A stretch of 40,814 nt of DNA from Patescibacteria group bacterium UBA6130 (GTDB lineage: Bacteria; Patescibacteriota; Microgenomatia; UBA12405; UBA6130). A program made the position numbers and the translations under genes. Under the pieces are notes generated by a model, which worked only from the letters and a program-made list of their open reading frames with translations, was not told the DNA's origin and made no database searches. This document shows, piece after piece, positions 8,610 to 35,054 of the stretch (within the stretch, counting starts at the first letter, position 1; every line of letters begins with the position of its first letter). The stretch lies in NCBI GenBank assembly GCA_002428285.1, contig DIVO01000012.1, positions 10,609 through 51,422 of the forward strand, given 5' to 3'.

Positions 8610-8672
8610 TAAATAATATTCTTACCACGTTGTTACAATAAAGTTAACTTTCATTTGATATAATCCACTTAG

Positions 8673-8701: not shown

Positions 8702-8743
8702 TATCCCATAATTATTATTATTTAATAATACACTTCGGGCAAA

Positions 8744-9376
8744 ATGAAAAATAAATTTTTATCGATACTATTTGCGACAGGATTTTTTTTAATCAGCTCT
8801 AGGGCAGTTGTTGCCTCGTATTTATATGAAACAACTGAGCCTTCAACTCAAATAATAATCGACAAAAAGGTCAGATCTGTTTTACATGACAGCTGGTCTG
8901 ATAATTTGTCTAAAGACAACACTCTATTCACCGCTAATGACTTGGTTGAATTTAAAATCACCATCAAAAACACAGGCGATCAGGATTTAACTAATGTTAA
9001 AGTTGTCGATTATATTCCCAACTATATAAATAGAGTATTTAATCCCGGCGATTATTCCGATGATAATAGGTCTATTAAGTGGACTTATGAAAAACTAACT
9101 CCGGGAGAAGAAAAGGAAGAAATAATTAGAGTCAAGATTGACGATTCTGATAAACTGCCTAACAGCCAGCAGTTCTGCCTGATCAACAAAGCTGATGTGT
9201 TTACCAACGAGGGTCCTTCCGACACCGACACCAGCGGGTTTTGTATCGAAACAAGAATATTGGCCGAAAAAGAACTGCCTCAGGCGGGTTCTAATTTACT
9301 CCTTACTACTATACTAGCATCCGCATTGGCTGGCGCTGGCATTCTTGCCAGAAAATTTGGCCGGGGCGAGATTTAA
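8744..9376 (+). CDS. Secreted DUF11/CARDB-like repeat protein with a C-terminal sortase sorting signal (LPQAG + TM + basic tail)
   Basis: Signal peptide MKNKFLSILFATGFFLISSRAVVA. DUF11-type segment LVEFKITIKNTGDQDLTNVKVVDYIP. The C-terminus is KELPQAGSNLLLTTILASALAGAGILARKFGRGEI. Confidence 0.75.
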   Translation: MKNKFLSILFATGFFLISSRAVVASYLYETTEPSTQIIIDKKVRSVLHDSWSDNLSKDNTLFTANDLVEFKITIKNTGDQDLTNVKVVDYIPNYINRVFNPGDYSDDNRSIKWTYEKLTPGEEKEEIIRVKIDDSDKLPNSQQFCLINKADVFTNEGPSDTDTSGFCIETRILAEKELPQAGSNLLLTTILASALAGAGILARKFGRGEI

Positions 9377-9461: not shown

Positions 9462-9673
9462 CCGCAAATTGCGGAAAGCACTTTTACAATTGGGGGGTAA
9501 AGTATATATCTGGATTATTCCATACTCCTTTTGTGGACATAAACTACCACGGTCTAACGACCAAGGTATTCTACAAACAGAAAAGTTCGTTTTTCACTCA
9601 AAATCATAAATTCTGTTAATTTTCTAATTATAGGTTTTGTGTCCAGCAAGGGGGTATGGAACGGAGGCAAACA

Positions 9674-11130: not shown

Positions 11131-12111
11131 ATGAAAAATAAAAAAAATAATACACTGATTTCAATTGTAATGCCCGTCTATAATACGGAGCGGTTTTTAC
11201 ATGCCTCTTTAAACTCGATCCTAAAGCAAACATATGAAAACTGGGAACTTATTTGCGTTGACGATGCTTCAACAGATAATTCACTCAAGATCTTGAAGTC
11301 TTATGCCAAAAAGGACAAAAGAATCCATGTGTTTGGACAAAACACAAATCAAGGAGTATCAAGAACTGCCAATTTTGCTCTTCGAAAAGCAAAAGGCACA
11401 CTCGTTGCCCGAATGGACGCAGATGATATCATGCTCCCAAGAAGGATAGAAAAACAGGTTAGATTTTTAAACAATAACCCTAAAGTTGTGGCTGTCGGCG
11501 GACAATGTTTATTGATAAACGAAAAAGGCAAAAAAATCGGGAGTAAATCTTTCCCCTTAAACCATGAAGCGATTTACAAGATGATCTACCAGGCAATGCC
11601 AATTCAACAGCCTACTCTAATGATAAGTAAAAAACTGCTTCCTAAAGGCTTTATTTGGTATGAAAAAGAGTTTACTACAGCCGAAGAGGTAGATTTACTT
11701 TTTAGACTGTTCAATTTTGGTAAAATTGCCAATCTTCCAGATTTCACTTTAAAATATAGACTACACGGCAATAACATATCATTAAAAAATCCAAAGGAAA
11801 CATTTCTTTTAACTTATCAAACACGCAAAGAAGCAATTAATAAACACGGGTATCGTCCAACGTTTTCTGCTAAAGTAATTAGTTGCGCACAATGGATGAC
11901 AATCCGGATAATTCCAAGCGCTGCCATATTTCCATTGTTTACTATTTGGCGAGGAGTTAAACCCTTTAGACCCAATCTCTTTAATCAGCTAAAAATTAAA
12001 CTTCCCAGAGAAGATTTTTCTATGACACATCAGGCTGGACAACTTATTGGTCATGCTTTATTGGCCATCTTTTTTGTGATTTTTAAAAAACTTAATAGAA
12101 TATGTTTATGA
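11131..12111 (+). CDS. Family 2 glycosyltransferase (GT-A fold)
   Basis: 326 aa. ISIVMPVYNTERFLHASLNSILKQTYENWELICVDDASTDNS and the DxD-type motif RMDADD. The C-terminal part is hydrophobic. Confidence 0.9.
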   Translation: MKNKKNNTLISIVMPVYNTERFLHASLNSILKQTYENWELICVDDASTDNSLKILKSYAKKDKRIHVFGQNTNQGVSRTANFALRKAKGTLVARMDADDIMLPRRIEKQVRFLNNNPKVVAVGGQCLLINEKGKKIGSKSFPLNHEAIYKMIYQAMPIQQPTLMISKKLLPKGFIWYEKEFTTAEEVDLLFRLFNFGKIANLPDFTLKYRLHGNNISLKNPKETFLLTYQTRKEAINKHGYRPTFSAKVISCAQWMTIRIIPSAAIFPLFTIWRGVKPFRPNLFNQLKIKLPREDFSMTHQAGQLIGHALLAIFFVIFKKLNRICL

Positions 12112-15100
12112 TTAAGTTCCAGTTAAAAAAATTCCTTCCTGTTGTTTTTTTGGTTTTTGTACTTTCTGCTTTATTTATTACAAACTACACTCCCGGAACT
12201 TACCTAACTGGCTGGGATAATCTTATGCCTGAACTTAATTTGGGCGTAAACATCAAAAGGTCACTCCTAGCAGTATGGCAAGAATATCAAGGGCTGGGAC
12301 TCGTTGGAGGCATGGGTCATGCAACAGAACTTATCAGACAACTTATAATTTTTCCCTTAAATCTCATTTTTCCGGTAAGCTTTATTCGCTATTTTTGGCA
12401 TTTTTCTATGTTAACACTTGGAACCCTAGGAGTTTATTTTATCCTTGGACAAATATCACTAAATAAAAATAAGACATTTAATCTGCTTCCAAGGGTTTTG
12501 GGGGCACTTTTTTACCTTCTAAATTTTGGAACAATTCAATTCTTTTGGCCTCCATATGAGGCTTTCTCAACTTTTTGGGGGTTTTTTCCCTGGCTAATCT
12601 TTTCTTTTTGGAATCTTATAAAAAAAAATAACAAAAGATCTCTTTATGTTTTTATTATTTTAAACATTCTCGCCACACCAAGCTTCTATATTCCAACACT
12701 ATTTGTTGTTTACCTCTTATGCCTTGCAGGCGTATCTTTAGGTTCCAAAAAGCCATTACCTTTAAGTTTTAAAGGGTTTTTTATCATTTTTATTATTAAT
12801 GCTTTTTGGTTATTACCATTTCTTTATTACTTATTAACCAACCTAAACAACACTCAAGAGGCTATAGCAAATCAAATATCAACAGAGGAGACTTTTTTAC
12901 GCAACCAGGGAAGGGGGACAATAAAAGATTTTCTTCTTATGCGTGGATATTATTACGATTTTCCCGATAGGGATGTGTCTCTTATGGAGACCTGGCATAA
13001 TCATTTTGAAAAAACAGGAATACTTCTACTTGGCTATTTTTTGGGAGGAATTGCTGTTTTTGGTTTATTGTTAACACTTATACGAAAACATCTCAATGGC
13101 TTCTCCTTAGGAATATTTATTATTTGGCTACTTGGTCTGATAGCACTTCTTTCGGCCATCCCACCGTTTGAACAAATAAACGATATTTTAAGACATATTC
13201 CACTCATAAATCAGGTGTTTCGTTCACCATTTACAAAATTTATCGTTCCAACAGCCTTTGCTTTTGCTTATTTCTTTGCAATATCTGTCCAATCTCTAGC
13301 TGATATTAAAATACGTTTTTTCGAATCAAATAAGTTGTTAAATTTTGTCATCGCTGGAGTGCTAGTAATAATGCTTGGAATATATAGCTCGCCAGCATTC
13401 TCGGGGAACTTCATATACCCAAAAATGAGGGTTGATATTCCTGGTGAATACCTTGAACTGATTGAATACCTGAAGGATAAACCAAGCATGGCAAGAATTG
13501 CCAACCTACCACAAGGAGATTTTTGGGGTTGGACTTTATACCGCTGGGGCGGAAGAGGCTCAGGATTTATTTGGTATGGAATTGAACAACCTATCCTTGA
13601 TAGAGCATTTGATGTTTGGAGCCTTAATAATGAACAATACTATTGGGAACTAAGCTATGCCCTACAAACACAAAATATTAGCTTGATTGAAAATATTTTT
13701 GATAAATATTTTATTGAATACGTCTTATTTGACGATAATGTATTTTTCCCTGGAGAAAAAGAATATGCAAAAATATCCCTTAACACTAAAAAACTACTAG
13801 AAGATTCTGAAAAGTTAAAAAAGGTGGCAGAATTTGGCAATCTTACTCTTTATAGATTTCATAAAAGCACTGTGCCAACAATAGTATTTGGTGACATTGT
13901 AGAATCTAATTTTAACGGGTTCTATTCCCAAGATTTATATTTTAATAATTTTGGAAATTATATAAGTAATTCGCAAAAACCAAACATCTACTACCCTTTT
14001 AACAGTATGTTTTCCAATAGATTTCAAAATGAACTTACCTTTTCTGTTGAAGAACTCGATGATAAACTTGTCTTGGAAATTCCAGTAGAATATTTTGAAA
14101 ATTTTAATTTAAAGCAAAATAACAATTTTTCTTCGGAAACAATTTTCCTAAATCAGGATATATCTCAAGGTTATCCCATAGCCCAAGTTGAAATACCTCT
14201 CGATGAACTAAGTAATTTCCGAAACTGCGCTTCCGAAAAATCTAACAGCGAATTTTACTCAAAAAGCAATAATGACATAACATTTGAAGCAGTTAATGCC
14301 TCCCCATGTGTAGATTGGAAATATAGTAGAGCCTTTAATGAGCTAGACCAACCATATATTGTAAAAATTGAATTTGAATATAAGTCAAAAACAGACGAAT
14401 GGCCTCAGTATTGTCTATTGAGTTCAAAGGGTAATTGCCTTAACAACAAAGACTTCCCCCTAAAAGGTTTTTCAAACCATTGGGAAATCTATTCAGAAGA
14501 AATCTTAATTGATCCAAAACAAGATAAGGTCGTCAATTTCTCACTAATCTTAGATGCGTATAATGAAAACATCGAAAAACAGATAAGCTATAGAAAAATA
14601 AAATTAACTTTTTACCCGGTCGATGCAAGCCGATTATCTAAAAATATTTCTTATAATATTATCCAAAATGGAGAAAACATTTATTTCGAAATCCCTAAAT
14701 TATTATCTAATATTTACATAGGCGATCTTGTTGAAAAAAATTTATATAAATTGAGATCAATAAACTGTAACTCTACTCTCCCCAATACTGGAAAAATTGA
14801 GCTAATAGATAATCAGCAAGAAAAGTTTATCAGACAAAGCGTCACGCATGGAGACTCATGTTTGATATGGAATTTCCCAGAATTGTCTCTTGATAGGGGA
14901 TGGCTGGTAAAAGTTGAATATCGCAATAAAAAAGGTTACCCCTTATTGGTCTCAGGTTTTGATGGACATGATAGATACAAATTTTTTTACACCAAATTAA
15001 CTTCGGAGGAAGAATGGCAAGATGCATATTTTGTAATTCCTGCATATTCACAAACACACAATGGACTTGCACTTCTTTTTGACACAATATCATACAATAA

Positions 15101-15509
15101 TTCCGAAAGCATAAACGATATCAAATCTCTCAAGATTTTTCCTCTTCCATGGGAATATCTGCAATCAATTTCTTACCAATCTGGTAATATTATTAAATCA
15201 GAAACACATTTAACTGAATTTAGCGGCAACATCTGGCATTATGAAATAAAAAATATTAATACAGCCACACAAACCAATAAAACACTTATTCTTCCCCAAT
15301 CTTACGATAAAGGATGGATAGCTATTACAGACAATTTCAAGCTTTTAGACCATTATGAGATAAGTAATTGGGCAAATGGATGGCAAATTGAGGGAAATCC
15401 GGAAAAAATCTATATAATCTTCTGGCCTCAAATCCTGCAATTCATCGGCTTTGGAGGATTGGGACTTGCCATGCTTCTTGTCACTTCAAAGAAGCGACTG
15501 ATAATCTGA
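12102..15509 (+). CDS. Very large polytopic membrane protein, possibly a GT-C-like glycan transferase (AftD/DUF3367- or YfhO-like)
   Basis: 1135 aa. About 12 or more predicted TM helices in the first 450 aa, a large Asn/Tyr-rich extracytoplasmic domain, and a terminal TM (ILQFIGFGGLGLAMLLV). The start overlaps the GT2 stop by 10 nt (ATGTTTATGA). The function is inferred from architecture and context only. Confidence 0.75.
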   Translation: MFMIKFQLKKFLPVVFLVFVLSALFITNYTPGTYLTGWDNLMPELNLGVNIKRSLLAVWQEYQGLGLVGGMGHATELIRQLIIFPLNLIFPVSFIRYFWHFSMLTLGTLGVYFILGQISLNKNKTFNLLPRVLGALFYLLNFGTIQFFWPPYEAFSTFWGFFPWLIFSFWNLIKKNNKRSLYVFIILNILATPSFYIPTLFVVYLLCLAGVSLGSKKPLPLSFKGFFIIFIINAFWLLPFLYYLLTNLNNTQEAIANQISTEETFLRNQGRGTIKDFLLMRGYYYDFPDRDVSLMETWHNHFEKTGILLLGYFLGGIAVFGLLLTLIRKHLNGFSLGIFIIWLLGLIALLSAIPPFEQINDILRHIPLINQVFRSPFTKFIVPTAFAFAYFFAISVQSLADIKIRFFESNKLLNFVIAGVLVIMLGIYSSPAFSGNFIYPKMRVDIPGEYLELIEYLKDKPSMARIANLPQGDFWGWTLYRWGGRGSGFIWYGIEQPILDRAFDVWSLNNEQYYWELSYALQTQNISLIENIFDKYFIEYVLFDDNVFFPGEKEYAKISLNTKKLLEDSEKLKKVAEFGNLTLYRFHKSTVPTIVFGDIVESNFNGFYSQDLYFNNFGNYISNSQKPNIYYPFNSMFSNRFQNELTFSVEELDDKLVLEIPVEYFENFNLKQNNNFSSETIFLNQDISQGYPIAQVEIPLDELSNFRNCASEKSNSEFYSKSNNDITFEAVNASPCVDWKYSRAFNELDQPYIVKIEFEYKSKTDEWPQYCLLSSKGNCLNNKDFPLKGFSNHWEIYSEEILIDPKQDKVVNFSLILDAYNENIEKQISYRKIKLTFYPVDASRLSKNISYNIIQNGENIYFEIPKLLSNIYIGDLVEKNLYKLRSINCNSTLPNTGKIELIDNQQEKFIRQSVTHGDSCLIWNFPELSLDRGWLVKVEYRNKKGYPLLVSGFDGHDRYKFFYTKLTSEEEWQDAYFVIPAYSQTHNGLALLFDTISYNNSESINDIKSLKIFPLPWEYLQSISYQSGNIIKSETHLTEFSGNIWHYEIKNINTATQTNKTLILPQSYDKGWIAITDNFKLLDHYEISNWANGWQIEGNPEKIYIIFWPQILQFIGFGGLGLAMLLVTSKKRLII

Positions 15510-19591: not shown

Positions 19592-19663
19592 GGCCCCATC
19601 GTCTAGCGGTTAGGACGGCGGATTCTCATTCCGTCAACCGGGGTTCGATTCCCCGTGGGGTCA
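19592..19663 (+). tRNA. tRNA-Glu (anticodon CUC); CCA not encoded
   Basis: Hand-folded cloverleaf. Acceptor GGCCCCA/TGGGGTC, D arm GTCT-AGCGGTTA-GGAC, anticodon arm GCGGA-TTCTCAT-TCCGT, 4-nt variable loop, T arm CGGGG-TTCGATT-CCCCG, discriminator A. The sequence after it is CACATG. Confidence 0.85.
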
Positions 19664-19694
19664 CACATGGGGAATGTTCGTCAAAATGGGTCTC

Positions 19695-20009: not shown

Positions 20010-21122
20010 ATGGAAATAAGAGGAAGCGAATCAGATATTACAGTTTGGAACCCAAAACCATTCCCCATAGGAAATACTTTTTGGTTACCAAATAAAAATA
20101 ATAAAAAGACAACCATAAATTATGAAAAGAAAATCTCGGTTAAAGTTCCCTTAAGACTTAGCCCGATTATGTTGGATTTGACTCGTTTCGTACCTACAGG
20201 AATCAATGTACGAGAATATGGAGCAGGAGAGGTATCGATTGCTGTTAATTCTTATTTAAGTGTAATTTTAAGTTTAAACAAAAATAATGATTCTAAAATC
20301 AACGGAACAGATAAAGAGTCAGTCGTTCGTCATGCAATTGAGTTGTATAAAAAAGCCATTGGTGAAGATTTTGGGGTAGATATTAAGGTGGAGGTTGATA
20401 ATAATCTTTCTCATGTTGGATTAGGGACTACCCCTGCCCATATAAGCGCAATTATATTAGGAATTAATTCTTTATGTGATAACTATTTTGACAACAGAGA
20501 GCTATCTAGATTAATTACATTAAATTACGGTGAAGAGTTTTCGGGGGATAAAAACATGTTAGTTCCAGGAATCTCAACAGGAGGAGCATTTTGGAGTTGT
20601 ATTTTTGGAGGGATAAATGTAACTAGCGGAGATTTTTCAAATGTCTTTTCTTCAAAACTTAATACCGACCTTGATCTGATAGTTAGTATCCCAATTACAA
20701 AAGAAAAACAATGGGCTGAAAAAGGTTTTGAGATACCAATAATGGATTTGGTAAGAAAATATGACCGTTTTGATGCCGGAAAAATATGCCATTGGGTATT
20801 GATGAGGCTTATGCCAGCAATATTGGACAATGATGTAAAGAAAATTGGAGAAGTATTTTGGGATGTTACGCTGAACACATCTAAAGCTATTCCTCCGATT
20901 ATAAAACATGGAGTGTTTAGCACTTTTGATTTATTAGCAGAACTTTATGTTAATAATGTTGAGGGTGCATTTTTGTCATCGGCTGGCCCACTAATTGGGT
21001 GTTTTAGCATGGAAAATGGCAAAACAAAATTAATTGAAAGTTTATTTGATAAATATTCAATTCCATATAAAATAATGAAGATTGATAATAAAGGCATAGA
21101 AATTAATAAAATCAGTGATTAA
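20010..21122 (+). CDS. GHMP-kinase-superfamily protein, beta-ribofuranosylaminobenzene-5'-phosphate (beta-RFAP) synthase-like
   Basis: 370 aa. The GHMP phosphate-binding-type motif is in the variant form SHVGLGTTPAHISAIILG, which I associate with the HxGLGSGTQ form of beta-RFAP synthases. The N-terminal strand ISVKVPLRLSPIMLDL resembles their RLHxGxxDL start. Family placement is from memory, not from a search. Confidence 0.5.
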   Translation: MEIRGSESDITVWNPKPFPIGNTFWLPNKNNKKTTINYEKKISVKVPLRLSPIMLDLTRFVPTGINVREYGAGEVSIAVNSYLSVILSLNKNNDSKINGTDKESVVRHAIELYKKAIGEDFGVDIKVEVDNNLSHVGLGTTPAHISAIILGINSLCDNYFDNRELSRLITLNYGEEFSGDKNMLVPGISTGGAFWSCIFGGINVTSGDFSNVFSSKLNTDLDLIVSIPITKEKQWAEKGFEIPIMDLVRKYDRFDAGKICHWVLMRLMPAILDNDVKKIGEVFWDVTLNTSKAIPPIIKHGVFSTFDLLAELYVNNVEGAFLSSAGPLIGCFSMENGKTKLIESLFDKYSIPYKIMKIDNKGIEINKISD

Positions 21123-21675
21123 AGGAATTGTAGCTATTAGTGGCCAATCAGGCTCTGGAAAATCATTGTTATCTTCTTTTTTTACTGAAAATAAAAAATA
21201 TAAAGTAGTTAGTGTCTCTAAAACAATGACAGAAATATTTGAAAAAATGATACCAAATTTTTATCAAATTAGTGAAGAACAACGACAAAATAAAATTCTT
21301 AATTTAATAAAAATAGACCCAGATATAGCTTCGAAAACAATTTTTAATAAAATTAAAGATTTCCCAAATGATATAGTAGTGGTACTTGATGGAGTCAGGA
21401 GTGAAAAGGACTACGCCACATTATTGGGGCAGACAAAAATAATTAGAATTTTTATGTATTCAGATTTTGTAACTAGGGCTGAAAGAGTGAAAAATAGAGA
21501 TGGAAAAGAAGTTGGTGATTTGATTTTAAGAGACTCTTTAGATAACGAGATTGGACTACAAGAAATCTTTAGAAAGGCAAATTATGTTGTCTATAACTAT
21601 CATAAAATTGAAATTAAGGAAGTTAAAAAACAAATTAATCAAATATTAATAAAAGAAGATATTTTCTTATTGTAA
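21115..21675 (+). CDS. Small P-loop nucleoside/nucleotide-kinase-like protein (adenylate / dephospho-CoA kinase superfamily, archaeal UPF0200-like)
   Basis: 186 aa with a GTG start overlapping the upstream stop by 8 nt. Walker A is ISGQSGSGKS. It also has VVVLDGVRSEKDYATL and a lid-like RAERVKNRDGKE. Confidence 0.55.
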   Translation: MIKGIVAISGQSGSGKSLLSSFFTENKKYKVVSVSKTMTEIFEKMIPNFYQISEEQRQNKILNLIKIDPDIASKTIFNKIKDFPNDIVVVLDGVRSEKDYATLLGQTKIIRIFMYSDFVTRAERVKNRDGKEVGDLILRDSLDNEIGLQEIFRKANYVVYNYHKIEIKEVKKQINQILIKEDIFLL

Positions 21676-21680
21676 ATAAT

Positions 21681-22904
21681 ATGCATAATGTTAATTTTTT
21701 AAATAACTTTTATATTTTAAAAGATAATTTTTCCTTATTAAATTGGGATAGTTTAATCGGATTACCTGTAAATAATAGTAAAACAATCGATACTGAAACA
21801 ATATATCTTGACAACAAAAAACATAGTTTAGGTTTTGACAAAATACTATATTGTTGGAAAAATATCGATACCCTTGTTGATACCTACGAATTGAATGAAA
21901 TTAATTGTGGAGACGGCATAAATAAAGTTTTGATCAAAGACAAACTTTCAAACATATTGAAACTAACAAGTAATTTTACTGTCGACAACCAACCATTGGA
22001 AAAACTATGTCAGACAAAATCATCGAAATATTATATTGAAAATAAGAATAATAAAATCTTAGAGATTGAAAATATCTATGAAACAAGTTATTACAATGAG
22101 TTAGATATAAAAGCATTAGATTTATCAAAATACTTGTTGGTAAAAATTCAAATTAACAACTCCAAATTAGGCGATAAAATAAGAAATATTTTAATTGATG
22201 CCGGTGCTATCTTTATACCTCCTCTTTTTTATGTTTTTAGTAATGAATTAATGGCTCTATTAGGTAAACAAAGTGGACAAAAACCATATTTAGAATACAA
22301 AGACCTTGAAATTGAGGCTAAACTTAATTCAACATCTAGTAACGCATTTGGTTTAATCTATGACTTTATAAACAATAATGGATTGGTTGGTTTTGAAATA
22401 GAAAAGGGGTTTCCACATTTTTTATCAAGAGGATTGAGAGTTTGTTATCTAAAAAATAACAAGGGATTATTTAATAAAATAGTATTTTATGGTTTTAAGG
22501 AACCAGCAATTGTTAAAAAAGCGTCAATGGAACTGGTGAAAGACAACAAAGGATTAAATTGTATTTTATCAAGAGAGGAAATTAAAGAGGAAGACAAAGT
22601 AACCGAAGAAGATATATTAAAAACTGCTGGAAGTGAGGCAATTTGGCTGGATAAAAGAAAAATGGTTTTTTGGATAGAAAATAAAATAACAGGAAGGGTT
22701 TACCATGTGGCAAATGATAAGTGTATTAGTAATAAAACAAATGATCTGTCGCAAGTTGAAATTGAATATGCTGGAACTGTTAAGAAGAATTCACCCAACA
22801 AACAGGCAATAATAGATGATATTACTAAAATTACGAGCACATTACTTAATAAATTTGATTTTTTGACACCAACAGTTGTTCGAAAAGAAGAATGGTTTGT
22901 TTAG
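21681..22904 (+). CDS. Two-domain protein: uncharacterised N-terminal half plus C-terminal CYTH (triphosphate tunnel metalloenzyme) domain
   Basis: 407 aa. The ExExK signature is LEIEAKL near residue 209. A C-terminal acidic strand QVEIEYAG lies near residue 357. The basic residues between them (RGLRVCYLK, KRKMVFW) fit a tunnel fold. Confidence 0.55.
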   Translation: MHNVNFLNNFYILKDNFSLLNWDSLIGLPVNNSKTIDTETIYLDNKKHSLGFDKILYCWKNIDTLVDTYELNEINCGDGINKVLIKDKLSNILKLTSNFTVDNQPLEKLCQTKSSKYYIENKNNKILEIENIYETSYYNELDIKALDLSKYLLVKIQINNSKLGDKIRNILIDAGAIFIPPLFYVFSNELMALLGKQSGQKPYLEYKDLEIEAKLNSTSSNAFGLIYDFINNNGLVGFEIEKGFPHFLSRGLRVCYLKNNKGLFNKIVFYGFKEPAIVKKASMELVKDNKGLNCILSREEIKEEDKVTEEDILKTAGSEAIWLDKRKMVFWIENKITGRVYHVANDKCISNKTNDLSQVEIEYAGTVKKNSPNKQAIIDDITKITSTLLNKFDFLTPTVVRKEEWFV

Positions 22905-23701
22905 TTATTAATTTTGTCAAATTTAATAATGTCACCGATATTTATATCTAATTCTTTTGAAGTGTCCAAACACCTAACTTTACCTAACTCAGTGTAATTA
23001 TTAATTGAACTACCATAATAAATTGCTATTGTGTTGTCAGGTAACGCCTTCATGGAAAAGGTAAATATTGCCTCACATCTTTTTGTGTTATTTACAAATA
23101 TTTCATATTTATCACCATCAGAAGGATTATCTAGTTTCGTATATATTTTTGGAACACCAAAATTATCTATATGCAAAACTACACCATCTTCTAGCGTGGG
23201 ATAACTTAATCGTTGACTATCAAAAGGTACCCCAAGTTCTGACAATGGTATTCCAGATGCAATTTTAGCAGCTATCGGAGCATGAATATACTTGCCACCG
23301 AATGAAATAAAATTTTGACCCTTGAGACCTTCTTGACTAGATTCGAATATTTGTTTTACTCCAAAATCTTTAATTAACCACCCTAGCGTTCCAGTATTTT
23401 CACCAACAAATTTAAACCCATTATTAGTTTCACCAATAATTCGAGCCCTATCTTTTCTTTCTGTTGTTAGGGGGTTTAGTATGACCAGAAAAATTGTATT
23501 ATTTGGTTGATAGTTATCTGCCATCAATCTTGTTAAAAAAGCACCGTTTATCAAGGAAAACTCTTTGGCGTTAACAATTGGTTCAACTTCAACTTTATCT
23601 TCTGCACCAATTTTTTCTAATTCTGACACTAATACAGCTCTAATTTCGTTTGCGGCGACATCGATACAATCTGTAATAACGACTAATCTAATTTTACTCA
23701 T
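22901..23701 (-). CDS. DUF62-family SAM hydroxide adenosyltransferase / chlorinase-fluorinase-like protein
   Basis: 266 aa. FGGKYIHAPIAAKIASG resembles the family FHGRDxFAPxAA motif, and VLHIDNFGVPKI resembles the family DxFGN motif. The N-terminal VVITDCID is a divergent form of the usual TDFG. Its stop overlaps the convergent CYTH gene stop by 4 nt. Confidence 0.6.
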   Translation of the reverse strand: MSKIRLVVITDCIDVAANEIRAVLVSELEKIGAEDKVEVEPIVNAKEFSLINGAFLTRLMADNYQPNNTIFLVILNPLTTERKDRARIIGETNNGFKFVGENTGTLGWLIKDFGVKQIFESSQEGLKGQNFISFGGKYIHAPIAAKIASGIPLSELGVPFDSQRLSYPTLEDGVVLHIDNFGVPKIYTKLDNPSDGDKYEIFVNNTKRCEAIFTFSMKALPDNTIAIYYGSSINNYTELGKVRCLDTSKELDINIGDIIKFDKINN

Positions 23702-28599: not shown

Positions 28600-30006
28600 C
28601 TATTGGCAATTACTATACAAATTGCATGCCATACTAAGAGCATTTTCCATGCCCATAAAATCATATATTTCTAAAATCCTTGGAATAAAAACCCCTTTTA
28701 CTCTAACCATTCTACTAGGTGTAAATTTAAATTCACGAATCCCCAGTCTAGTAAGTATTTCCGTTATTAACTCCTTATTCTCCTCTACCCATCTATCAAT
28801 ACCCGTAATATCATCTTGCGACAGATTTCGTAAAGCGCGTGTATAACCTTCTCTCTGGGCTTTTTTAACTAGTACATTACTAAACTCTTTCTCCAGACCT
28901 TCCTTAGTAATAGTTTCTAAATAAGGAATTGAATATTCTTGCCATGTCTTACCAAATACTTCACCATCTCTTGTCCAGTCCTGATCTTCAAATTCATCAG
29001 AGTACCCTCTGTCATCTAGGCTCATTTTCGAAAGAACCCTTCTGGGATCGGTTGAAACCCAAAAGGGTGCACGCAATATTTTTTCCTGCGCATGTTCTTT
29101 TCTCGCAGCTTGAATTCTTCGACCAAAATCAATATCAGATGCACGCTTTAAACCTCCGTTAAAACCACCAACAGCACAATATGCTGCAGCGCTGAATGCC
29201 ATGGCTCTCCCTGAAGTCCAAGGAATATAATTTCCATCACGGTTATGTAACATGCGATAATATCTATGAAAATAAAAAGCAGCAGCTAATAAAGGATACT
29301 TACTAAAAGACTCAGGTGGATATGTAAAACTTCCAACAAGGACATCTGGCAAGGATCCTTTTCGATCAAAACCCTCTAAAACAGAGGAAAGATAGTTTCC
29401 GGAAAGATCATAAAGATCTGCGTCGCTACTAACTATTATATGATCATCGTCGTATTTTTGAGTTGCTGCAATTCTCCATAAATTTAGATCGAATAAAAGT
29501 TTTCTTATACTTCCAAACGGCATCGATTCTTCAACAACAACATGTGTATAACAAATATCGACCTCTGGGTGATTATCCTGAAATTCAACAACCTGCCTAC
29601 CAGTTGAATCTGGTACTTCGCTTGCATGATGATTATCAAGGATGAAAATTCTAGCACGTTCTAAACATGCGGAAGGCTGTTCTAAAAAACTTTCTAATGT
29701 GCGTCTTATATTCTTTCCCTCTTGACTTGATGCAATACAAATAGATATTTTTTTATCTCTGGCAGTTGAACCTGGAATTGTTTCGTCGAGCGATCTAAGA
29801 AACTGAATGTAAGCATTACTGTGTTGCTTTAAATAATTTGCAATCTCAACGCCCTCAACTAACTCTGCATCAGAATTATCTACTAAAGTTTGTGACTTTG
29901 ACTTTAAGCCTTCATAGATTCCAAAGAACAAAGATGAAGAATCTTTCATTTGCCTCTCAATCAACTCAGTTGGAATTTTTGTGCCTTTAAATTCACTTTC
30001 AACCAT
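28600..30006 (-). CDS. GT-A-fold glycosyltransferase-like protein with long N- and C-terminal extensions
   Basis: 468 aa. ISICIASSQEGKNIRRTLESFLEQ (GT2-type first strand and helix), DxD-type SSDADLYD, and later GRAMAFSAAAYCAVGGFN. The C-terminal roughly 110 aa has no motif I recognise. Confidence 0.6.
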   Translation of the reverse strand: MVESEFKGTKIPTELIERQMKDSSSLFFGIYEGLKSKSQTLVDNSDAELVEGVEIANYLKQHSNAYIQFLRSLDETIPGSTARDKKISICIASSQEGKNIRRTLESFLEQPSACLERARIFILDNHHASEVPDSTGRQVVEFQDNHPEVDICYTHVVVEESMPFGSIRKLLFDLNLWRIAATQKYDDDHIIVSSDADLYDLSGNYLSSVLEGFDRKGSLPDVLVGSFTYPPESFSKYPLLAAAFYFHRYYRMLHNRDGNYIPWTSGRAMAFSAAAYCAVGGFNGGLKRASDIDFGRRIQAARKEHAQEKILRAPFWVSTDPRRVLSKMSLDDRGYSDEFEDQDWTRDGEVFGKTWQEYSIPYLETITKEGLEKEFSNVLVKKAQREGYTRALRNLSQDDITGIDRWVEENKELITEILTRLGIREFKFTPSRMVRVKGVFIPRILEIYDFMGMENALSMACNLYSNCQ

Positions 30007-30106
30007 TTTATATAGTACTATACATTATCTTATAGTAATATGCAATATTATTATTAAAACCTTATCTTTATTCTATATATTTATTGATTCATTAGGTTTT
30101 TCTTTG

Positions 30107-30112
30107 TATAAT
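30107..30112 (+). promoter_or_regulatory. -10 box TATAAT 6 nt upstream of the ATG at 30119 (candidate leaderless transcript)
   Basis: The sequence is ttgTATAATccaaaaATG. Confidence 0.4.
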
Positions 30113-30118
30113 CCAAAA

Positions 30119-30709
30119 ATGAAGAAGCTTTATATTGTAAGACACGGTCAATCTGAAGGCAACATAATCAAACACGTGTCTTTCGCTCACACGCCAATTA
30201 CTGAGAAAGGAAGAAATGATGCATATAGATTGGGTAAAAGATTAAAAAGAGAAAAAATAAAAGTTGATATAATTTTTTACAGCCCTCTTACTCGTTCAGC
30301 TCAAACACTTGAAGCCATTAAGGAAGGGGGGTTTGATATTTCGCAAATTCAGGTTAAGCCAAACCCGCTTTTACAAGAAATTAACCGAAAAGAATTTGAA
30401 GGAAAACCAAGTGATGAATACTATGCTAAACGCTCAGAAAGCGGACTACCAGTAAATGATTACCGATGTAAAGGTGGAGAAAGTGAAAACGACGTAAAAA
30501 AAAGAGCAATAAAGTTTCTAGATAATTTCAAGAGTTCAAAATTTGACTCTGTGTTGATAGTTACACACGGACATTTTATTGCTTGGATTATGATACTACT
30601 TGGATTTTCAGATATCGGTCACATGCACGGAGCATCTCTTTCTTTAGTAAAAATCAATGGCAATAATGCAAGAGTCGCTTTCTTAGATGACATATCTCAT
30701 CTTAAATAA
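30119..30709 (+). CDS. Histidine phosphatase superfamily (PGAM/CobC/SixA-like) protein
   Basis: Track ORF starts at 29981. The ATG at 30119 gives MKKLYIVRHGQSEGN (RHG motif), followed by the second catalytic His context IVTHGHFI. The 46-codon upstream extension is AT-rich junk. Confidence 0.8.
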   Translation: MKKLYIVRHGQSEGNIIKHVSFAHTPITEKGRNDAYRLGKRLKREKIKVDIIFYSPLTRSAQTLEAIKEGGFDISQIQVKPNPLLQEINRKEFEGKPSDEYYAKRSESGLPVNDYRCKGGESENDVKKRAIKFLDNFKSSKFDSVLIVTHGHFIAWIMILLGFSDIGHMHGASLSLVKINGNNARVAFLDDISHLK

Positions 30710-31422
30710 TTATTCATTTCTTCTCTTGCCAATTTTTTTACCTCAAGATAACGATTATACTCATATTCTAAATCAAATCCGGGAGCATGATAAAAACAGT
30801 GATTTGCAACTAAATCCATTGTTTTATCTGGAGGAAAAATATTTAATTGATTAAAATCAGCTAATGCATGTGCATATACCAATGGATTATAAACATAGTC
30901 ATGAACAATGGAAATATACCGGTGTTGCGGATTTTCAGGATCCATTCGTGAACGAACCCATTCGCTATAGCTTCTGCAAAACGGATAAAAAAAATCAGCA
31001 TACATTATTCCAATTTCTGTTACAGCAAAGTTTTTCGGAGTTGGATCTATTCCAACTGGGCAATTTTTAATTAAACACAATGCGTTTAAAATTCCATTCA
31101 CTCCTGAAATAAACTGCTCATCTCCTAGTGCCATTTGAGCATCAAGAAACACATCATGATATTTTGTAGTAATGATTATTGTGTCACCCTGTAGAATGAT
31201 TTCAAAAATTTCTACTACAGGAATGCCTGCTTTTTTAAGTTCGCTAATATAATCTTCAATAAAATCTCGCATTTTAAGAGGATTTTTATCCTGCGATGCA
31301 AGCCGAGAAACATCAATAACTGACAAAACTTTATCACCTGAGCGATAAGTTTCTTTGGAAGTTAAACCACTTCTTAGTTGCACGAATTCTCCAGAAGTTT
31401 TTAACGCTTCGACATTATACAT
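30697..31422 (-). CDS. Hypothetical protein, possibly a minimal protein-kinase-like / aminoglycoside-phosphotransferase-like fold
   Basis: 241 aa. It has a candidate catalytic-loop-like GIDPTPKNFAV and a metal-binding-loop-like IMYADFFYP. It is paralogous to the upstream ORF. The fold assignment is only my pattern reading. Confidence 0.35.
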   Translation of the reverse strand: MYNVEALKTSGEFVQLRSGLTSKETYRSGDKVLSVIDVSRLASQDKNPLKMRDFIEDYISELKKAGIPVVEIFEIILQGDTIIITTKYHDVFLDAQMALGDEQFISGVNGILNALCLIKNCPVGIDPTPKNFAVTEIGIMYADFFYPFCRSYSEWVRSRMDPENPQHRYISIVHDYVYNPLVYAHALADFNQLNIFPPDKTMDLVANHCFYHAPGFDLEYEYNRYLEVKKLAREEMNNYLR

Positions 31423-32272
31423 GTTGCTTCTTATACTCTTCCATACTTTTAACCAACTCCTGTTTACAAAAAAAGCGCTGACGCCTTAAATTCAGTATCA
31501 AGTCTTCATTGTTAGAATTCTTTAACAACTTTTTTGGTGAATCATAACAGATCAATTGATTACCATTGCCTATAATCATCCATTTTGAATTTAATTTCAA
31601 CAATTTATCAAGATTTTTCACAGCCCAGCTAAACTGCCCCAGTTTTATGGTTTTTAAAGCAAGAGGAAAGCTTTGCTTATTCTTATCCAAGAAACAAATA
31701 AACATCTCGATTAACTTTTCTTTTTTTTCTGGCAATATTTCTACAAACTGTGTCATTGCCGATAGAAATGAGCTATTGGGTGAAAATTGAACCAAGTAAT
31801 AACTACATCCATCCTCTTTTTTCTTATAATGTAAATATTTATCTTTGCTGGCAGGTATAAAAAAATCAACGAATACTGTGTTTTTGCCATTAAAAGTGAA
31901 TTGTTCATGAAATGAGGACAACCCTATTCCTGCACACAATCCTTTTTTCAAATTATTAAGATAACTCCTGTATGCAACACAAAAAGAGTCACTTTTCAGA
32001 GCATCGAGAAGGGTTTTACCCTCATATGAATATTTATTTACGATTACCTCGTCCTCAACCAAATGAGGAATTTCAGCATATCGAGGAACACAAACTCCAG
32101 CTTTTTTACATTGCTCATAATAGTTTGATATATCTTTAGTAATTTGACTTACTGAGCGATCATATTTTTCTGTGTTAATTATCTTATAAACAAATCGACT
32201 ATCACGATGAACCGTTTGGACAGAACCATGTTTATAAATTGGCATTTTCGCAATTTTATTTATTTTTTTCAT
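31415..32272 (-). CDS. Hypothetical protein, paralogue of 30697-31422 lacking the D/N catalytic-loop residues
   Basis: Track ORF extends to 32407 but overlaps the upstream radical SAM gene by 150 nt. Met46 (32272) or Met55 (32245) are more plausible starts. QCKKAGVCVPRYAEI aligns with ELKKAGIPVVEIFEI, and TVFVDFFIP aligns with IMYADFFYP. GLSSFHEQF replaces GIDPTPKNF. Confidence 0.4.
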   Translation of the reverse strand: MKKINKIAKMPIYKHGSVQTVHRDSRFVYKIINTEKYDRSVSQITKDISNYYEQCKKAGVCVPRYAEIPHLVEDEVIVNKYSYEGKTLLDALKSDSFCVAYRSYLNNLKKGLCAGIGLSSFHEQFTFNGKNTVFVDFFIPASKDKYLHYKKKEDGCSYYLVQFSPNSSFLSAMTQFVEILPEKKEKLIEMFICFLDKNKQSFPLALKTIKLGQFSWAVKNLDKLLKLNSKWMIIGNGNQLICYDSPKKLLKNSNNEDLILNLRRQRFFCKQELVKSMEEYKKQHV

Positions 32273-33344
32273 ATGCTGCGATCTGACCATGAACATCAAT
32301 ATTAAAATCTGTATGGTGACCGCTACAACAACTACAAATGGAAAAAGAAGGTTTCCTGAGCTTTTTTCTAAATCCAACAAAACGTTTTGAATTCCAAATT
32401 GAATCAAAGTCAGATTTGTTTATATTTCCCATTATTAAATCTTTATGCAAATGATGTGGCGCAACACAGCAAGGCGTGACAGAACCATCAGATATAATAT
32501 AAGCATAGAAACAAGGAACTACACATGAAATATTTTGATATATTTTTTTCGTGTATAATCCTCCAGTTGTCGCAGATAAAAAATTATTACCATGTCTCTC
32601 TAATTCAAATGGATCAGAAACTGTTCGATATATACCAGTAAAACCATATTTAGAATATTTCTTAAGCAAAATAGGCCTAACTCTATCATAGAAATCTTTT
32701 AATTCTCCTCTGGATAAAAAGTCTTTTTTGTTCTCTTTGTTTTTTATAGGTATGAAGTTAATCTCGTCATAATTTGCCACTTTTTTTAAGTCCAAAATTT
32801 TAGGTGTGTCAATGTAATTATTCTTGTTGATAATAGAATAGACCACAATTTTGGCTTTTGAATTATATTTCTTTTTGTATTTGTCTAAGTTCTGAATTGC
32901 CCCCATGGCTCTCTCCCACCCATCGTCCAATCTTCTCCTTTGATTGTGCTTTTCTGGACAATGTGAATCAATAGAAATCGCAACTTCCCTTATTCCATAA
33001 CTAACAAGTCTTTCCGCACAATAATTATCAATCAGATACCCATTACTGTTGATTTTTACTGTTAATCCAAGGGTGTTTGAATATTTTACGAATTTAAGAA
33101 AGTCTGGATGTAAGGTAGGTTCTCCACCAGTAAAATCGACCTCTCTGCAACCCATACTTTTAATTATCTTGAGTGTTTTTAGAACTATTTCACTTTTTAA
33201 AACATCTGGTTTAATTAGATATAAATTACAATGTAGGCAACGAGCATTACATCCATTTGTTAGTTGAAATTTCACCCTATGAGGACGAACTGCTTCATTA
33301 TTTCTAACTTTCCTGATATCTTGGATACTTAATTTAATCTTCAT
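32256..33344 (-). CDS. Radical SAM enzyme with a C-terminal Cys-rich SPASM/twitch-like extension (anSME/BtrN-like architecture)
   Basis: 362 aa. CxxxCxxC at residues 31-38 (TNGCNARCLHCN), GGEPTL, and C-terminal cysteines ISCVVPCFYAYIISDGSVTPCCVAP and FSICSCCSGH. There is no room for an N-terminal RRE/PqqD-like domain. Confidence 0.8.
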   Translation of the reverse strand: MKIKLSIQDIRKVRNNEAVRPHRVKFQLTNGCNARCLHCNLYLIKPDVLKSEIVLKTLKIIKSMGCREVDFTGGEPTLHPDFLKFVKYSNTLGLTVKINSNGYLIDNYCAERLVSYGIREVAISIDSHCPEKHNQRRRLDDGWERAMGAIQNLDKYKKKYNSKAKIVVYSIINKNNYIDTPKILDLKKVANYDEINFIPIKNKENKKDFLSRGELKDFYDRVRPILLKKYSKYGFTGIYRTVSDPFELERHGNNFLSATTGGLYTKKIYQNISCVVPCFYAYIISDGSVTPCCVAPHHLHKDLIMGNINKSDFDSIWNSKRFVGFRKKLRKPSFSICSCCSGHHTDFNIDVHGQIAAYEKNK

Positions 33345-34605
33345 TAATATTAAAGTCTCTGTTAAATATTATTTTCAGATATTCAACAGAGGCTAGCCCC
33401 TCTACAGAGTTAATCTTGTAGGTGTATCTATTCATCGCCGAAACCTCAGAAAGGGTAGATTTCTTTGTTAACAAATGATATGGGGAATAGGAACTTGGTC
33501 TAACTTCACCACCTGAATCTTTAATTAGTTTAATTGTCTTTAACACATCTTTTTTAGTTTGACCCGGCAAACCAAGCATAATATAACATTTCGCGTTTAT
33601 ACCAACTTTTTTAAGCATTTTAATTGTTTTTATAACTTGGTGAGTTGACTGAACTTTGTGAATTTCTTGTTGAATATCTTCCTGAAGAGATTCGATTCCA
33701 ATTCCAACAGACTTACAACCAGCATTGGCCATAATTTTAACAATTTCCTCATCTAACAATGTAATACGTGTAGTACATCGCCAACTAAATTTAATATTTT
33801 CTTTTATAAGCTGTTGACAAAATTCTCTTACCCATTTTTTATCGTAAGTAAAATTTGGAGAAAACATTTGAATTGCATTAAAATACTCTTTGTTATCTTT
33901 TATATATTTTATGGTTTTGTCTACTGGCCGTCTTCTTTCTTTTCCACCATACATCTGTGTAGCAAAACAATATTCGCAATTGAAGGGACAGCCTCTTGAT
34001 ACAGTTAAGCTTATCTGTCTTTTGCCAAATTTCCTTATTGTTTTCTTATTAGAAATAATTCTGTCATATCCGTTCAACGGCAACTCCTTTAAAGGCGGAA
34101 ATGCCCATAAATCAGGCTCCAGATATTTAGGTTTAGCCTTGTAACCTCTCGAATTAACAACCACTCCAGAAAGCTCTTTTTCGTCAATTAATTTCTCTTT
34201 ATACTTAATAAAACTCTCAATTCCTAATTCAGGATCTCCTGCCCATATATAAGCATCAAAAATAGGTTTACCAAAAAACTGAGGGACATAATAACAAGAA
34301 GGACCATAGGCGATAATGTTTGTATTTGGCGTAATCTCTTTACAAATCTGAGCAGCCCTAATTGCCGAATGTGTATTATGAACATAAGAAAGGATAATTA
34401 GGTAGTCATAACGATTAAGCAACTTCTGGATATACTCTTTTTTCAAATAATTCAAAACACCACCATCGAAAATATCAACCTGATACTCTGGTTTATCGAT
34501 AAAATATGCAGCAGTCTCACCTAAAATTGTATAGTGGTGATGTAAAGTTAAATCATACGGCATTTCCGGTGGCCAGAGAAATAATATTCGAAGTTTATTA
34601 TTCAT
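33334..34605 (-). CDS. B12-binding-domain radical SAM enzyme (class B type)
   Basis: 423 aa. The N-terminal Rossmann-like region (LRILFLWPPE...YDYLIILSYVHNTH) is typical of the cobalamin-binding domain. The radical SAM motif is SRGCPFNCEYCFA. The stop overlaps the next gene start by 11 nt. Confidence 0.8.
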   Translation of the reverse strand: MNNKLRILFLWPPEMPYDLTLHHHYTILGETAAYFIDKPEYQVDIFDGGVLNYLKKEYIQKLLNRYDYLIILSYVHNTHSAIRAAQICKEITPNTNIIAYGPSCYYVPQFFGKPIFDAYIWAGDPELGIESFIKYKEKLIDEKELSGVVVNSRGYKAKPKYLEPDLWAFPPLKELPLNGYDRIISNKKTIRKFGKRQISLTVSRGCPFNCEYCFATQMYGGKERRRPVDKTIKYIKDNKEYFNAIQMFSPNFTYDKKWVREFCQQLIKENIKFSWRCTTRITLLDEEIVKIMANAGCKSVGIGIESLQEDIQQEIHKVQSTHQVIKTIKMLKKVGINAKCYIMLGLPGQTKKDVLKTIKLIKDSGGEVRPSSYSPYHLLTKKSTLSEVSAMNRYTYKINSVEGLASVEYLKIIFNRDFNINED

Positions 34606-34932
34606 CTATCAAAAATATTATCATGACTATAGGATAAGTTCAAGTATATAATACTCTGAGAAAAAGTATCTACTTTAGAGTTTCCAAAATAATGTAATTT
34701 TTTCAACTAATGAAGTAATCATAATCTCATATATAAACCGCTGAATGCGGAAGACAGAACAGGACGAAGGTAATTCCCACTCAGAGCATAAAAGTATGAA
34801 ATTATCAAAATAGGTTTAAATTTTTTACAAAGTCCTCGCAAAAACTTCTTTTTATCCTTTTATTACTTATGTTTCTGACATTTTAGGAGAGAGGACTTAC
34901 TTATCTAGAATATCGAAAAGTTCTAATAATAT

Positions 34933-35054
34933 TTAAACTAGCTTCTTCTCTGAAAAACGACTATAGGTTTCTCTAATTGTCATCAAAAGTGAGCCTAAGC
35001 CAAAAGACAAGGCAATCATTTGAACAAAACCTCCAATGAAAGGCAAAACAATGG
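34933..35054. repeat. Direct repeat copy B (122 bp), forming the 3' end of the intact gene at 34933-36105
   Basis: See copy A. There are 8 substitutions. By my translation 6 are synonymous and 2 are amino-acid changes (T to A, S to G). Confidence 0.85.

Follow-up and report, generated by a model that had tools for sequence, protein, structure and literature searches.

The closest described counterparts of the locus reported here belong to aminoglycoside, heptose and oxetanocin metabolism. AprD4 (PDB 6fd2), a carbohydrate diol dehydratase, is the 1,2-diol dehydratase of apramycin biosynthesis, and BtrN (4m7s/4m7t) is the 2-deoxy-scyllo-inosamine dehydrogenase; both are radical S-adenosylmethionine (SAM) enzymes. 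OxsB, a class-B radical SAM enzyme, works together with the phosphohydrolase OxsA on nucleotides, and BlsE, viperin and MoaA act on nucleotides or nucleoside sugars. Heptose activation (HldE/HddA with GmhB) and the transient phosphorylation carried out by GenP/AprU both combine a kinase with a phosphatase, the logic being that the substrate passes through a bisphosphate or carries a phosphate that is transient or protective. For GenP, phosphorylation serving deoxygenation is documented (PMC7941887). Here, we describe a gene cassette at positions 30116-34605 of a 40,814-nt stretch of DNA (the window) from contig DIVO01000012.1 (positions 10,609 to 51,422; assembly GCA_002428285.1) of Patescibacteria group bacterium UBA6130. 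The cassette encodes two radical SAM enzymes (A and B), two proteins with a kinase-like fold (C and D) and a member of the histidine phosphatase superfamily (E).

All parts of the cassette come from known superfamilies, and the logic of radical SAM tailoring plus kinase plus phosphatase has precedents in the aminoglycoside, heptose and oxetanocin systems. Nevertheless, no curated equivalog, defence model or paper covering this gene set was found, in agreement with the first-pass annotation, a reading of the sequence without database searches that could not match the combination to any described cluster. That annotation had proposed either (a) a system modifying a ribosomally synthesized and post-translationally modified peptide (RiPP) or a protein or (b) a modified-sugar or aminoglycoside-like small-molecule pathway. 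The second proved the better of the two. On balance, the evidence leans towards a self-contained, laterally mobile cassette for small-molecule tailoring rather than a peptide-modification system. The pathway would somewhat more probably than otherwise run through a phospho-intermediate, with a sugar, cyclitol or nucleoside being phosphorylated, remodelled by radical chemistry and dephosphorylated.

Organization and conservation of the cassette

The genes and the region upstream of them are as follows.

Gene A, 33334-34605, minus strand, 423 aa: radical SAM enzyme of class-B architecture with an AprD4-like core
Gene B, 32256-33344, minus strand, 362 aa: radical SAM enzyme with a C-terminal twitch domain
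Gene C, 31415-32272, minus strand, 285 aa: apparently catalytically degenerate paralogue of D with a kinase-like fold
Gene D, 30697-31422, minus strand, 241 aa: putative minimal protein-kinase-like kinase, a distant DUF6206-like member
Gene E, 30116-30709, plus strand, 197 aa: histidine phosphatase superfamily, convergent with D
Gene F, 28600-30006, minus strand, 468 aa: weak GT-A/GT2 glycosyltransferase similarity, divergent from E
Intergenic region upstream of A, 34606-34932, minus strand, 327 nt: presumed promoter region

The four minus-strand open reading frames (ORFs) were found at the positions given by the first-pass annotation, and their start-to-stop overlaps were as it had described, with 11 nt shared by A and B (33334-33344) and 8 nt shared by C and D (31415-31422). 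The longest ORF of gene C spans 31415-32407; its 285 aa are counted from the ATG at 32272, and an independent gene call on the source contig placed the start at Met38 (32296), giving 293 aa. The B/C overlap is 17 nt with the former start and 41 nt with the latter. An overlap of 8-29 nt between B and C is kept in orthologous loci, so the tight coupling is conserved and the proposed coupled operon is borne out. At its 3' end, E overlaps the 3' end of D by 13 nt. The GC content of the cassette (0.32) is near that of its surroundings. Genes A-D are genuine genes rather than chance ORFs, because orthologues at 36-62% amino acid identity occur in the same order across many loci. Gene structure, coupling and conservation as a unit were all established directly.

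The cassette recurs as a unit in ~15 independent lineages with differing flanks, at 36-62% identity. This disposes of the caveat, attached to the first-pass annotation, that the quartet might be conserved nowhere else, and extends the unit to other Patescibacteria, including a Candidatus Shapirobacteria metagenome-assembled genome (MAG). When six proteins were mapped onto all fetched loci (designated by L numbers), three layouts emerged.

Type 1, A-B-C-D with convergent E: the window, L003/L004, L005, L006, L007, L008-L011 and L101
Type 2, A-B-D-amidohydrolase with convergent E: L012, L014/L096-L098, L015/L016, L099, L100 and L102
Type 3, A-B-HAD-C-D-HAD: L093/L094 and L106

Gene C is missing in the type-2 clade, where an amidohydrolase gene follows D. 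Type 3 is the deepest variant (L093/L106; identity of 42% for A, 39% for B and 28% for each of C and D) and has two haloacid dehalogenase (HAD) superfamily genes in place of His_Phos_1. A, B, D and a phosphatase make up the invariant core, which differs from the quartet as first listed. All four genes of the quartet are real, but as a unit it is incomplete without the conserved convergent E, and C is not universal.

Among 185,579 species genomes (one genome per species), only four carried a B orthologue, one of them the Candidatus Shapirobacteria MAG (Patescibacteria group, Microgenomates). Only one orthologue locus bears a credible taxon label, that of Microgenomates. The family is rare overall, with ~11 B-orthologue clusters among 5.8 billion. 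A phage origin was rejected: no orthologue was found in the viral contigs of IMG/VR, where the best match was 27% identical.

Transposase genes flank the type-2 cassette of the Candidatus Shapirobacteria MAG (L014), one of the IS481 family (5685-6697, two ORFs) on one side and one of a Zn-binding variant of the IS256 family (11721-12521) on the other. This bracketing by insertion sequences (IS) suggests that the five genes move as a unit. A decayed cassette was also observed in which D is reduced to its C-terminal half and is accompanied by just the amidohydrolase and E (L104:659-2756 and L105:7001-9098); neither A nor B was found within 7 kb upstream of this remnant. In one type-1 locus, a Cas1 gene lies ~5 kb downstream of the cassette (L008:11425-12453) and was unseen in the other loci.

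Radical SAM enzyme A

Gene A encodes the Pfam Radical_SAM core (PF04055, E = 4e-28) with the cluster motif C206-x3-C210-x2-C213, all three cysteines of which are invariant in eight orthologues (59-62% identical). The N-terminal ~195 residues align to the class-B enzymes HpnJ, BchE and MJ_1487 solely in full-length family models. These hidden Markov models align residues ~61-370 of A, with scores 3-10 fold under their cut-offs, and the alignment points to a remote N-terminal Rossmann-like domain. This domain was not recognized as B12-binding by Pfam. PF02310 gave no match in A at E <= 0.1 and no significant match in any of the eight orthologues (the sole match, in one of the eight, had an E-value of 0.28), yet it matched a distant A-like protein from a Woesearchaeota locus (L056) at 2.6e-16.

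When the A family profile was compared with solved structures, the best match was AprD4 (6fd2), with an E-value of 2.4e-23 over the radical SAM core. This was 14 orders of magnitude ahead of the other solved relatives, namely an unnamed radical SAM protein (8e-9) and then TokK and OxsB (~1e-4; 1.7e-4 for OxsB). AprD4 shares with A the two-domain layout with an N-terminal Rossmann-like domain, and C263, C277 and C297 of A are matched by AprD4 cysteines in the alignment. The differences are that A scored 81.5 bits with the AprD4 family model NF033070, the equivalog cut-off of which is 500, that the N-terminal domains do not align, and that the cassette lacks both a reductase partner of AprD3 type and neighbouring aminoglycoside genes. 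AprD4 belongs to the B12-radical SAM network yet has no bound cobalamin, and AprD4 and ArsL-type enzymes share the class-B layout and sequence network without binding cobalamin (PMC12931638). Judged from its sequence, A is class-B in layout, and its dependence on cobalamin is doubtful because PF02310 was not detected and its affinity is to an enzyme that is cobalamin-free. The first-pass annotation had predicted both cobalamin dependence and a GenK-like C-methylase; neither prediction was supported by the PF02310 and AprD4 results.

These results bear on a cobalamin-dependent, aminoglycoside-like C-methylation pathway, in which A would be a GenK-type enzyme, B a BtrN-type dehydrogenase and C and D kinases like the aminoglycoside phosphotransferases, acting with a nearby glycosyltransferase and methyltransferase. 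Such a pathway is considered very unlikely. It would account for the class-B architecture of A, with its full-length sub-threshold matches to HpnJ, BchE, MJ_1487, PhpK and BzaD and its weak similarity to TokK and OxsB in their N-terminal domains, as well as for the BtrN-like twitch domain of B and the glycosyltransferase-like gene F, which is adjacent in the window, L008-L011 and L101. However, besides the failure to detect PF02310 and the much closer relationship to AprD4, a cyclitol synthase or aminotransferase was present in no locus examined. F is absent from most lineages and the methyltransferase gene (G) from all others examined, type-2 cassettes stand alone between transposases, and C appears inactive as a kinase by its motifs.

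Radical SAM enzyme B

B matched PF04055 and PF13186 (SPASM; 54.4 bits against a gathering cut-off of 21.5). Its cluster motif, C32-x3-C36-x2-C39, lies one residue further on than the positions 31-38 assigned at first. With just 31 residues before the motif there is, as had been argued, no room for a RiPP recognition element (RRE), and the Pfam scan gave no PqqD-like (RRE) match. The only downstream cysteines conserved across 11 orthologues are C274, C292/C293, C337 and C340. The full SPASM motif, CX9-15GX4C...CX2CX5CX3C...C, was absent, there being no cysteine after the CX2C.

C274, C292, C337 and C340 align residue by residue with Cys169, Cys187, Cys232 and Cys235 of BtrN (4m7s), which reportedly ligate the auxiliary cluster of that enzyme. 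The four auxiliary cysteines of the two proteins are thus in register (CX12GX4C...CX2C), and BtrN likewise has a single auxiliary cluster and no RRE. By these motifs, B is classed as a twitch enzyme with one auxiliary cluster and not as a full SPASM enzyme, so the initial description stands in its BtrN-like twitch domain and lack of an RRE and gives way on SPASM. Unlike BtrN, B is accompanied by no butirosin-type genes and is ~100 residues longer; the homology is limited to ~72 residues, and the core of B is nearer to SkfB (its top match in the PDB), BlsE, viperin and MoaA. The 11 clusters of B orthologues make up a tight clade (53-61% identity), beyond which identity falls to <=27%.

No NCBIfam model came near its cut-off with B. 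Prokaryotic viperin (NF038283) gave 65.8 bits against a cut-off of 180, which is 2.7-fold below, and the matches to the PADLOC pVip models (E ~1e-20) reflect the shared core. The first-pass annotation had allowed that both radical SAM proteins might fall into well-characterized housekeeping families. All NCBIfam equivalogs were below cut-off, and MoaA, HemN/HemW, MiaB/RimO, NirJ/AhbD, PqqE, viperin, BchE and HpnJ were rejected as assignments at 3-10 fold under their cut-offs.

Kinase-like proteins C and D

No significant Pfam, NCBIfam or PDB sequence match was obtained for C or D. Both had been put forward as kinase-like paralogues, and AlphaFold models searched with Foldseek gave a protein-kinase-like fold for each. 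At E <= 1e-3, Foldseek returned 928 PDB matches for the model of D (predicted local distance difference test, pLDDT, 89.9), and the 50 of these that were listed are kinases (TM-scores 0.34-0.47), among them PAK1, RIPK2, Bud32 and the WbdD kinase domain. The motifs of D comprise G19, K23, a catalytic loop G-I-D126-P-T-P-K-N131-F (D-x4-N) and a DFG-like D143-F-F, with D126, N131 and D143 invariant across 45 relatives. The beta3 lysine (VAIK) is lacking, the position matching Lys30 of C being Ser or Gly in the D family. The nearly invariant K23, four residues past the G19 loop, may stand in for it in the manner of WNK. Both folds and catalytic motifs could be established directly, and from the modelled fold and the motifs D is a plausible active kinase.

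D scored 14.8 bits with DUF6206 (PF19709), under the gathering cut-off of 30.4, while 26 of 45 of its wider relatives matched at E <= 0.01 (best 1.7e-7). No mention of DUF6206 in the literature was found. Close homologues of D numbered five among 5.8 billion clusters, and a profile search recovered 75 relatives in 1.84 billion representatives, partially overlapping with DUF6206. The D-x4-N loop and DFG-like Asp of D are shared by DUF6206 and by small sugar-kinase members of the protein-kinase-like superfamily (WaaY, WaaP, KdoK, the WbdD kinase domain and LicA-type enzymes), and the relatives of D are placed beside nucleotidylyltransferases and CDP-alcohol transferases, much as LicA is beside LicC. 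D differs from these sugar-kinase members and DUF6206 in its sub-threshold score and its missing beta3 lysine.

The paralogy of C and D was supported by BLASTP (E = 5e-5) and by comparison of the family profiles with hhalign (probability 98%, E = 1.6e-13, 199 columns). The model of C (pLDDT 76) had PRPK/Bud32, Rio1 and CaMKII as top Foldseek matches. Since C keeps the beta3-type Lys30 and a D136-F-F motif but has invariant Ser119 and Gln124 at the positions of D126 and N131 in D, it looks like a nucleotide-binding, catalytically degenerate, pseudokinase-like partner. Of the two kinases envisaged initially, D retains intact motifs, while C lacks the catalytic Asp and Asn and is absent in one clade.

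Phosphatase E and the adjacent gene F

E matched PF00300 (His_Phos_1) with 101.8 bits against a cut-off of 21.7 and carries the R-H-G motif at residues 8-10 (V-R-H-G-Q at 7-11). Among solved structures, the broad-specificity phosphatase PhoE (1ebb/1h2e) comes closest to it. With the alpha-ribazole phosphatase model CobC (TIGR03162) it scored 68.6 bits, under the equivalog cut-off of 162.9. Remodelling of the lower ligand of cobamides was rejected as a function, the BzaD and CobC matches both being far under cut-off.

E was found in all type-1 and type-2 loci that reach beyond D; the suggestion that the nearby phosphatase belongs with the system was therefore correct. Both the histidine phosphatase and the HAD superfamilies include small-molecule phosphatases and phosphomutases, and HAD enzymes are typical small-molecule phosphatases or mutases. 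The replacement of the histidine phosphatase by HADs in type 3 indicates that phosphate removal or transfer is integral to the pathway. In combining a kinase with a phosphatase, the cassette resembles heptose activation and GenP/AprU phosphorylation, by analogy only: those pathways use kinases of GHMP or ribokinase type and the HAD enzyme GmhB, none of them homologous to the proteins here, and no nucleotidyltransferase is conserved with the cassette.

F gave Glycos_transf_2 and Glyco_tranf_2_3 matches at E ~1e-3, under cut-off. Its orthologues (40-44% identity) adjoin E in L008-L011 and L101 and are absent in L007, L012 and L014-L016. F is peripheral or may use the cassette product downstream in its subclade. 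Of the nearby glycosyltransferase and methyltransferase that had been drawn into the proposed sugar pathway, F is linked to the cassette only in the subclade of the window, L008-L011 and L101, and the methyltransferase was unseen in other lineages.

Clues to the substrate

A peptide substrate encoded beside the cassette was searched for among 371 flanking ORFs of 12-110 aa from 10 loci. In the all-against-all comparison, no small ORF family was shared between lineages, and the small ORFs within 34606-34932 had no counterpart at other loci. There is also little space upstream of A at some loci: in L014 a transposase gene stops ~36 nt ahead of it, and in L007 the gap is 115 nt. With no conserved small ORF beside the cassette, the RiPP proposal (a) found no support, and this absence of the hallmarks of a peptide pathway was observed directly. 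Neither a riboswitch nor a leader RNA was detected upstream of A in Rfam gathering and E-value scans. In an alignment of eight upstream regions, the only recurring element was a promoter-like TTGAAA...TAAAAC in type-2 loci, and a promoter and terminator scan of 29900-35000 gave sites not above shuffled expectation.

Modification of a protein or RiPP encoded elsewhere, with A and B as the modifying enzymes and D, C and E as a kinase, pseudokinase and phosphatase trio on the same target, is regarded as quite improbable. The best NCBIfam matches of B, all sub-threshold, include protein and peptide maturases (GeoRSP, the tungsten-cofactor oxidoreductase maturase, WgkB, SkfB and StsB), and SkfB is also its top PDB match; however, these maturase matches are largely to the generic core of radical SAM enzymes, with scores 4-10 fold under cut-offs. 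A weakly matches the RiPP or protein C-methylases ApyD, rSAM_ocin_1 and the methyl-coenzyme M reductase (MCR) glutamine methyltransferase, and D and C fold like protein kinases, Bud32/PRPK and Rio1. The lack of an RRE in B is a point against such a system, although anSME-type enzymes likewise have none. Together with the missing small ORF family, which was sought around the cassette in every lineage pair, and the transposase gene ending just before A in L014, two features point instead to small molecules: the HAD replacement in L093/L106 and the amidohydrolase of type 2, which is like nucleoside deaminases. In addition, distant relatives of D are located in sugar-activation operons.

Two loci with relatives of D were informative in this respect. 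At L095:112-10075, a D relative sits between a G1P-dehydrogenase-like gene and a sugar-1-phosphate nucleotidylyltransferase, accompanied by a HAD of the beta-phosphoglucomutase/hexitol-phosphatase type, an Rpe-like epimerase, a CDP-alcohol phosphotransferase, Wzx, Wzy and a GT4 glycosyltransferase. In P0075, a D relative is fused to Rpe, and the neighbours are an NTP-transferase, a CDP-alcohol transferase and an IMPase-family gene. By gene content, both are classed as sugar- or polyol-phosphate activation operons. They look like an undescribed route for CDP- or NDP-polyol/sugar activation, which would give DUF6206 a function. A distant pair of A-like and B-like genes was found in L056 within a polysaccharide locus (Wzx, GT1, GT2 and a methyltransferase).

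Other neighbours point to nucleosides. The type-2 amidohydrolase belongs to the TRZ/ATZ group, and its nearest named relatives are the chlorohydrolase model PRK07213, atrazine chlorohydrolase and the deaminases of 5'-deoxyadenosine and of methylthioadenosine/S-adenosylhomocysteine. NUDIX genes lie beside a type-1 and a type-3 locus, a nucleoside diphosphate kinase (NDK) gene lies beside L007, and YjjG-type nucleotidases are the closest relatives of the second HAD in L093.

These observations could fit a viperin- or oxetanocin-like factory for antiviral or antimetabolite nucleotides, in which D would make the nucleotide, A and B would dehydrate or rearrange the ribose, and E would release the analogue. 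This version is a sub-case of the phospho-intermediate pathway, so that the likelihoods given to the readings overlap, and taken by itself it is rather unlikely. Apart from the neighbours just named, with the adenosine-analogue deaminases prominent among the relatives of the amidohydrolase, it draws on the pVip matches of B and on viperin, MoaA and BlsE as its PDB matches. The cassette is accessory and flanked by insertion sequences in L014, and OxsB/OxsA offers a precedent for radical SAM chemistry on a phosphorylated ribose combined with a phosphohydrolase, the same logic as here. The likeness to OxsB and to viperins is weak, with A-OxsB at 1.7e-4 and B-viperin matches at model level all far under thresholds. 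Moreover, OxsA has an HD domain rather than the His_Phos_1 or HAD of the cassette, and the cassette adds a kinase/pseudokinase pair and a second radical SAM enzyme. B remains well under the viperin cut-off and, unlike viperins, possesses a twitch domain; no PADLOC model matched C, D or E; no orthologue occurs in viral contigs; defence neighbours are inconsistent; and the relatives of D point to sugars or polyols over nucleosides.

An anti-phage defence function as such was rejected, PADLOC giving mainly core-level pVip matches for B and weak ones for A (PDC-M51A, pVip) and none for C, D and E. Futalosine (MqnE/MqnC) and F420 (CofG/CofH) synthesis were considered owing to the deaminase and to an F420-ligase-like neighbour in L007. 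They were discarded, as neither radical SAM family is represented among the best 25 matches listed and the neighbours show no conservation. The neighbours in question form a set beside the type-1 cassette (L007:13345-21095) comprising NDK, NUDIX, an NTP-transferase, a class II aldolase, an F420-ligase-like (CofE-like) protein and an archaeal-type SAM synthetase. The label of this locus, 'uncultured Gammaproteobacteria', is probably unreliable, the neighbour set being unusual for it.

Proposed pathway

Returning to the phospho-intermediate pathway, we infer which class of substrate is used, what A and B catalyse and in which order the steps occur, as follows. D would phosphorylate a scavenged carbohydrate-type metabolite, whether a sugar, a polyol, a cyclitol or the ribose of a nucleoside. 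A and B would then remodel the phosphorylated substrate by chemistry based on H-atom abstraction. Being AprD4-like, A would most likely be of the cobalamin-independent 1,2-diol dehydratase or rearrangement type; B, with its BtrN-like twitch domain, would most likely oxidize a secondary alcohol by two electrons or carry out a related C-H functionalization. E, as a histidine phosphatase or mutase, would take off or move the phosphate, a role that the HADs would fill in type 3. C probably still binds nucleotide or substrate as a non-catalytic, dispensable partner of D, and in type 2 the amidohydrolase could deaminate the product or the 5'-deoxyadenosine by-product of A and B. Within this pathway, the choice between a sugar or polyol and a nucleoside is close to even, with a slight lean to the former.

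Several points weigh against this pathway. No sugar-phosphate cyclase, aminotransferase, nucleotidyltransferase or glycosyltransferase is conserved with the cassette. The family assignments of A and B are far under curated cut-offs, their chemistry being extrapolated from relatives of ~25-30% identity, and several of the relatives with which B scores (GeoRSP, WgkB, SkfB and the tungsten-cofactor oxidoreductase maturase) act on proteins or peptides. D lacks a canonical beta3 lysine, so that its use of K23 is conjectural, and the nearest structures of D and C are protein kinases and Bud32/RIO-type proteins. The histidine phosphatase superfamily also includes protein phosphatases, so that the target may conceivably be a protein.

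A stronger proposal can be offered tentatively, as a possibility that is more doubtful than the pathway itself. Through two new radical SAM reactions, one following the other on a phosphorylated substrate, the cassette may produce a hitherto undescribed modified sugar or nucleoside and serve Microgenomates as a mobile accessory trait. If so, the product might be, for example, a building block of surface glycans, an antimetabolite or an antiviral in an episymbiotic lifestyle, and DUF6206-like minimal kinases would be placed in a functional context for the first time, with a kinase/pseudokinase pair among them that is dedicated to a small molecule. The genomes of Patescibacteria are very small and encode almost no biosynthesis. 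That two Fe-S radical enzymes are spent on one product in such minimal genomes makes it likely that the product matters for interactions with a host, with phage or at the envelope.

For enzymology, the locus offers two unassigned radical SAM clades, one AprD4-like and maybe cobalamin-free, the other of BtrN-like twitch type, with clues to the substrate built in through the kinase, phosphatase and deaminase. For kinase biology, it offers a compact kinase/pseudokinase pair in an unannotated family.

Other features of the window

The remaining window is of housekeeping character, with genes for SerRS, a class II tRNA synthetase of Asp/Lys/Asn type, GreA, UvrABC, a sortase, a class I tRNA synthetase of Trp/Tyr type, Lon, ThiI and Era. 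Some further features were observed. At 22901-23701 (minus strand), ~7 kb from the cassette, a 266-aa protein carries PF01887, the N-terminal domain of SAM hydroxide adenosyltransferase (DUF62/fluorinase-like). Right after tRNA-Glu (19592-19664), three plus-strand genes at 20010-22904 (370, 186 and 407 aa) have a GC content of 0.25-0.28 against ~0.34. Only the middle one has a weak match, to AAA_18, and the group may be a small island integrated at the tRNA.

The plus-strand genes at 7851-9376 encode a sortase and then a DUF11 protein ending in LPQAG, a hydrophobic stretch and a basic tail, likely a sortase and substrate pair. At 9656-10663 (plus strand), a 335-aa protein with no Pfam match carries at its N-terminus a basic region and then a hydrophobic helix; its gene lies in a stretch of locally raised GC content (0.43-0.49), and its richness in Ala, Val and Glu sets it apart from the rest of the window. 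Finally, an 1135-aa ORF that also lacks a Pfam match (12102-15509, plus strand) lies downstream of, and overlaps, a GT2 gene at 11131-12111.

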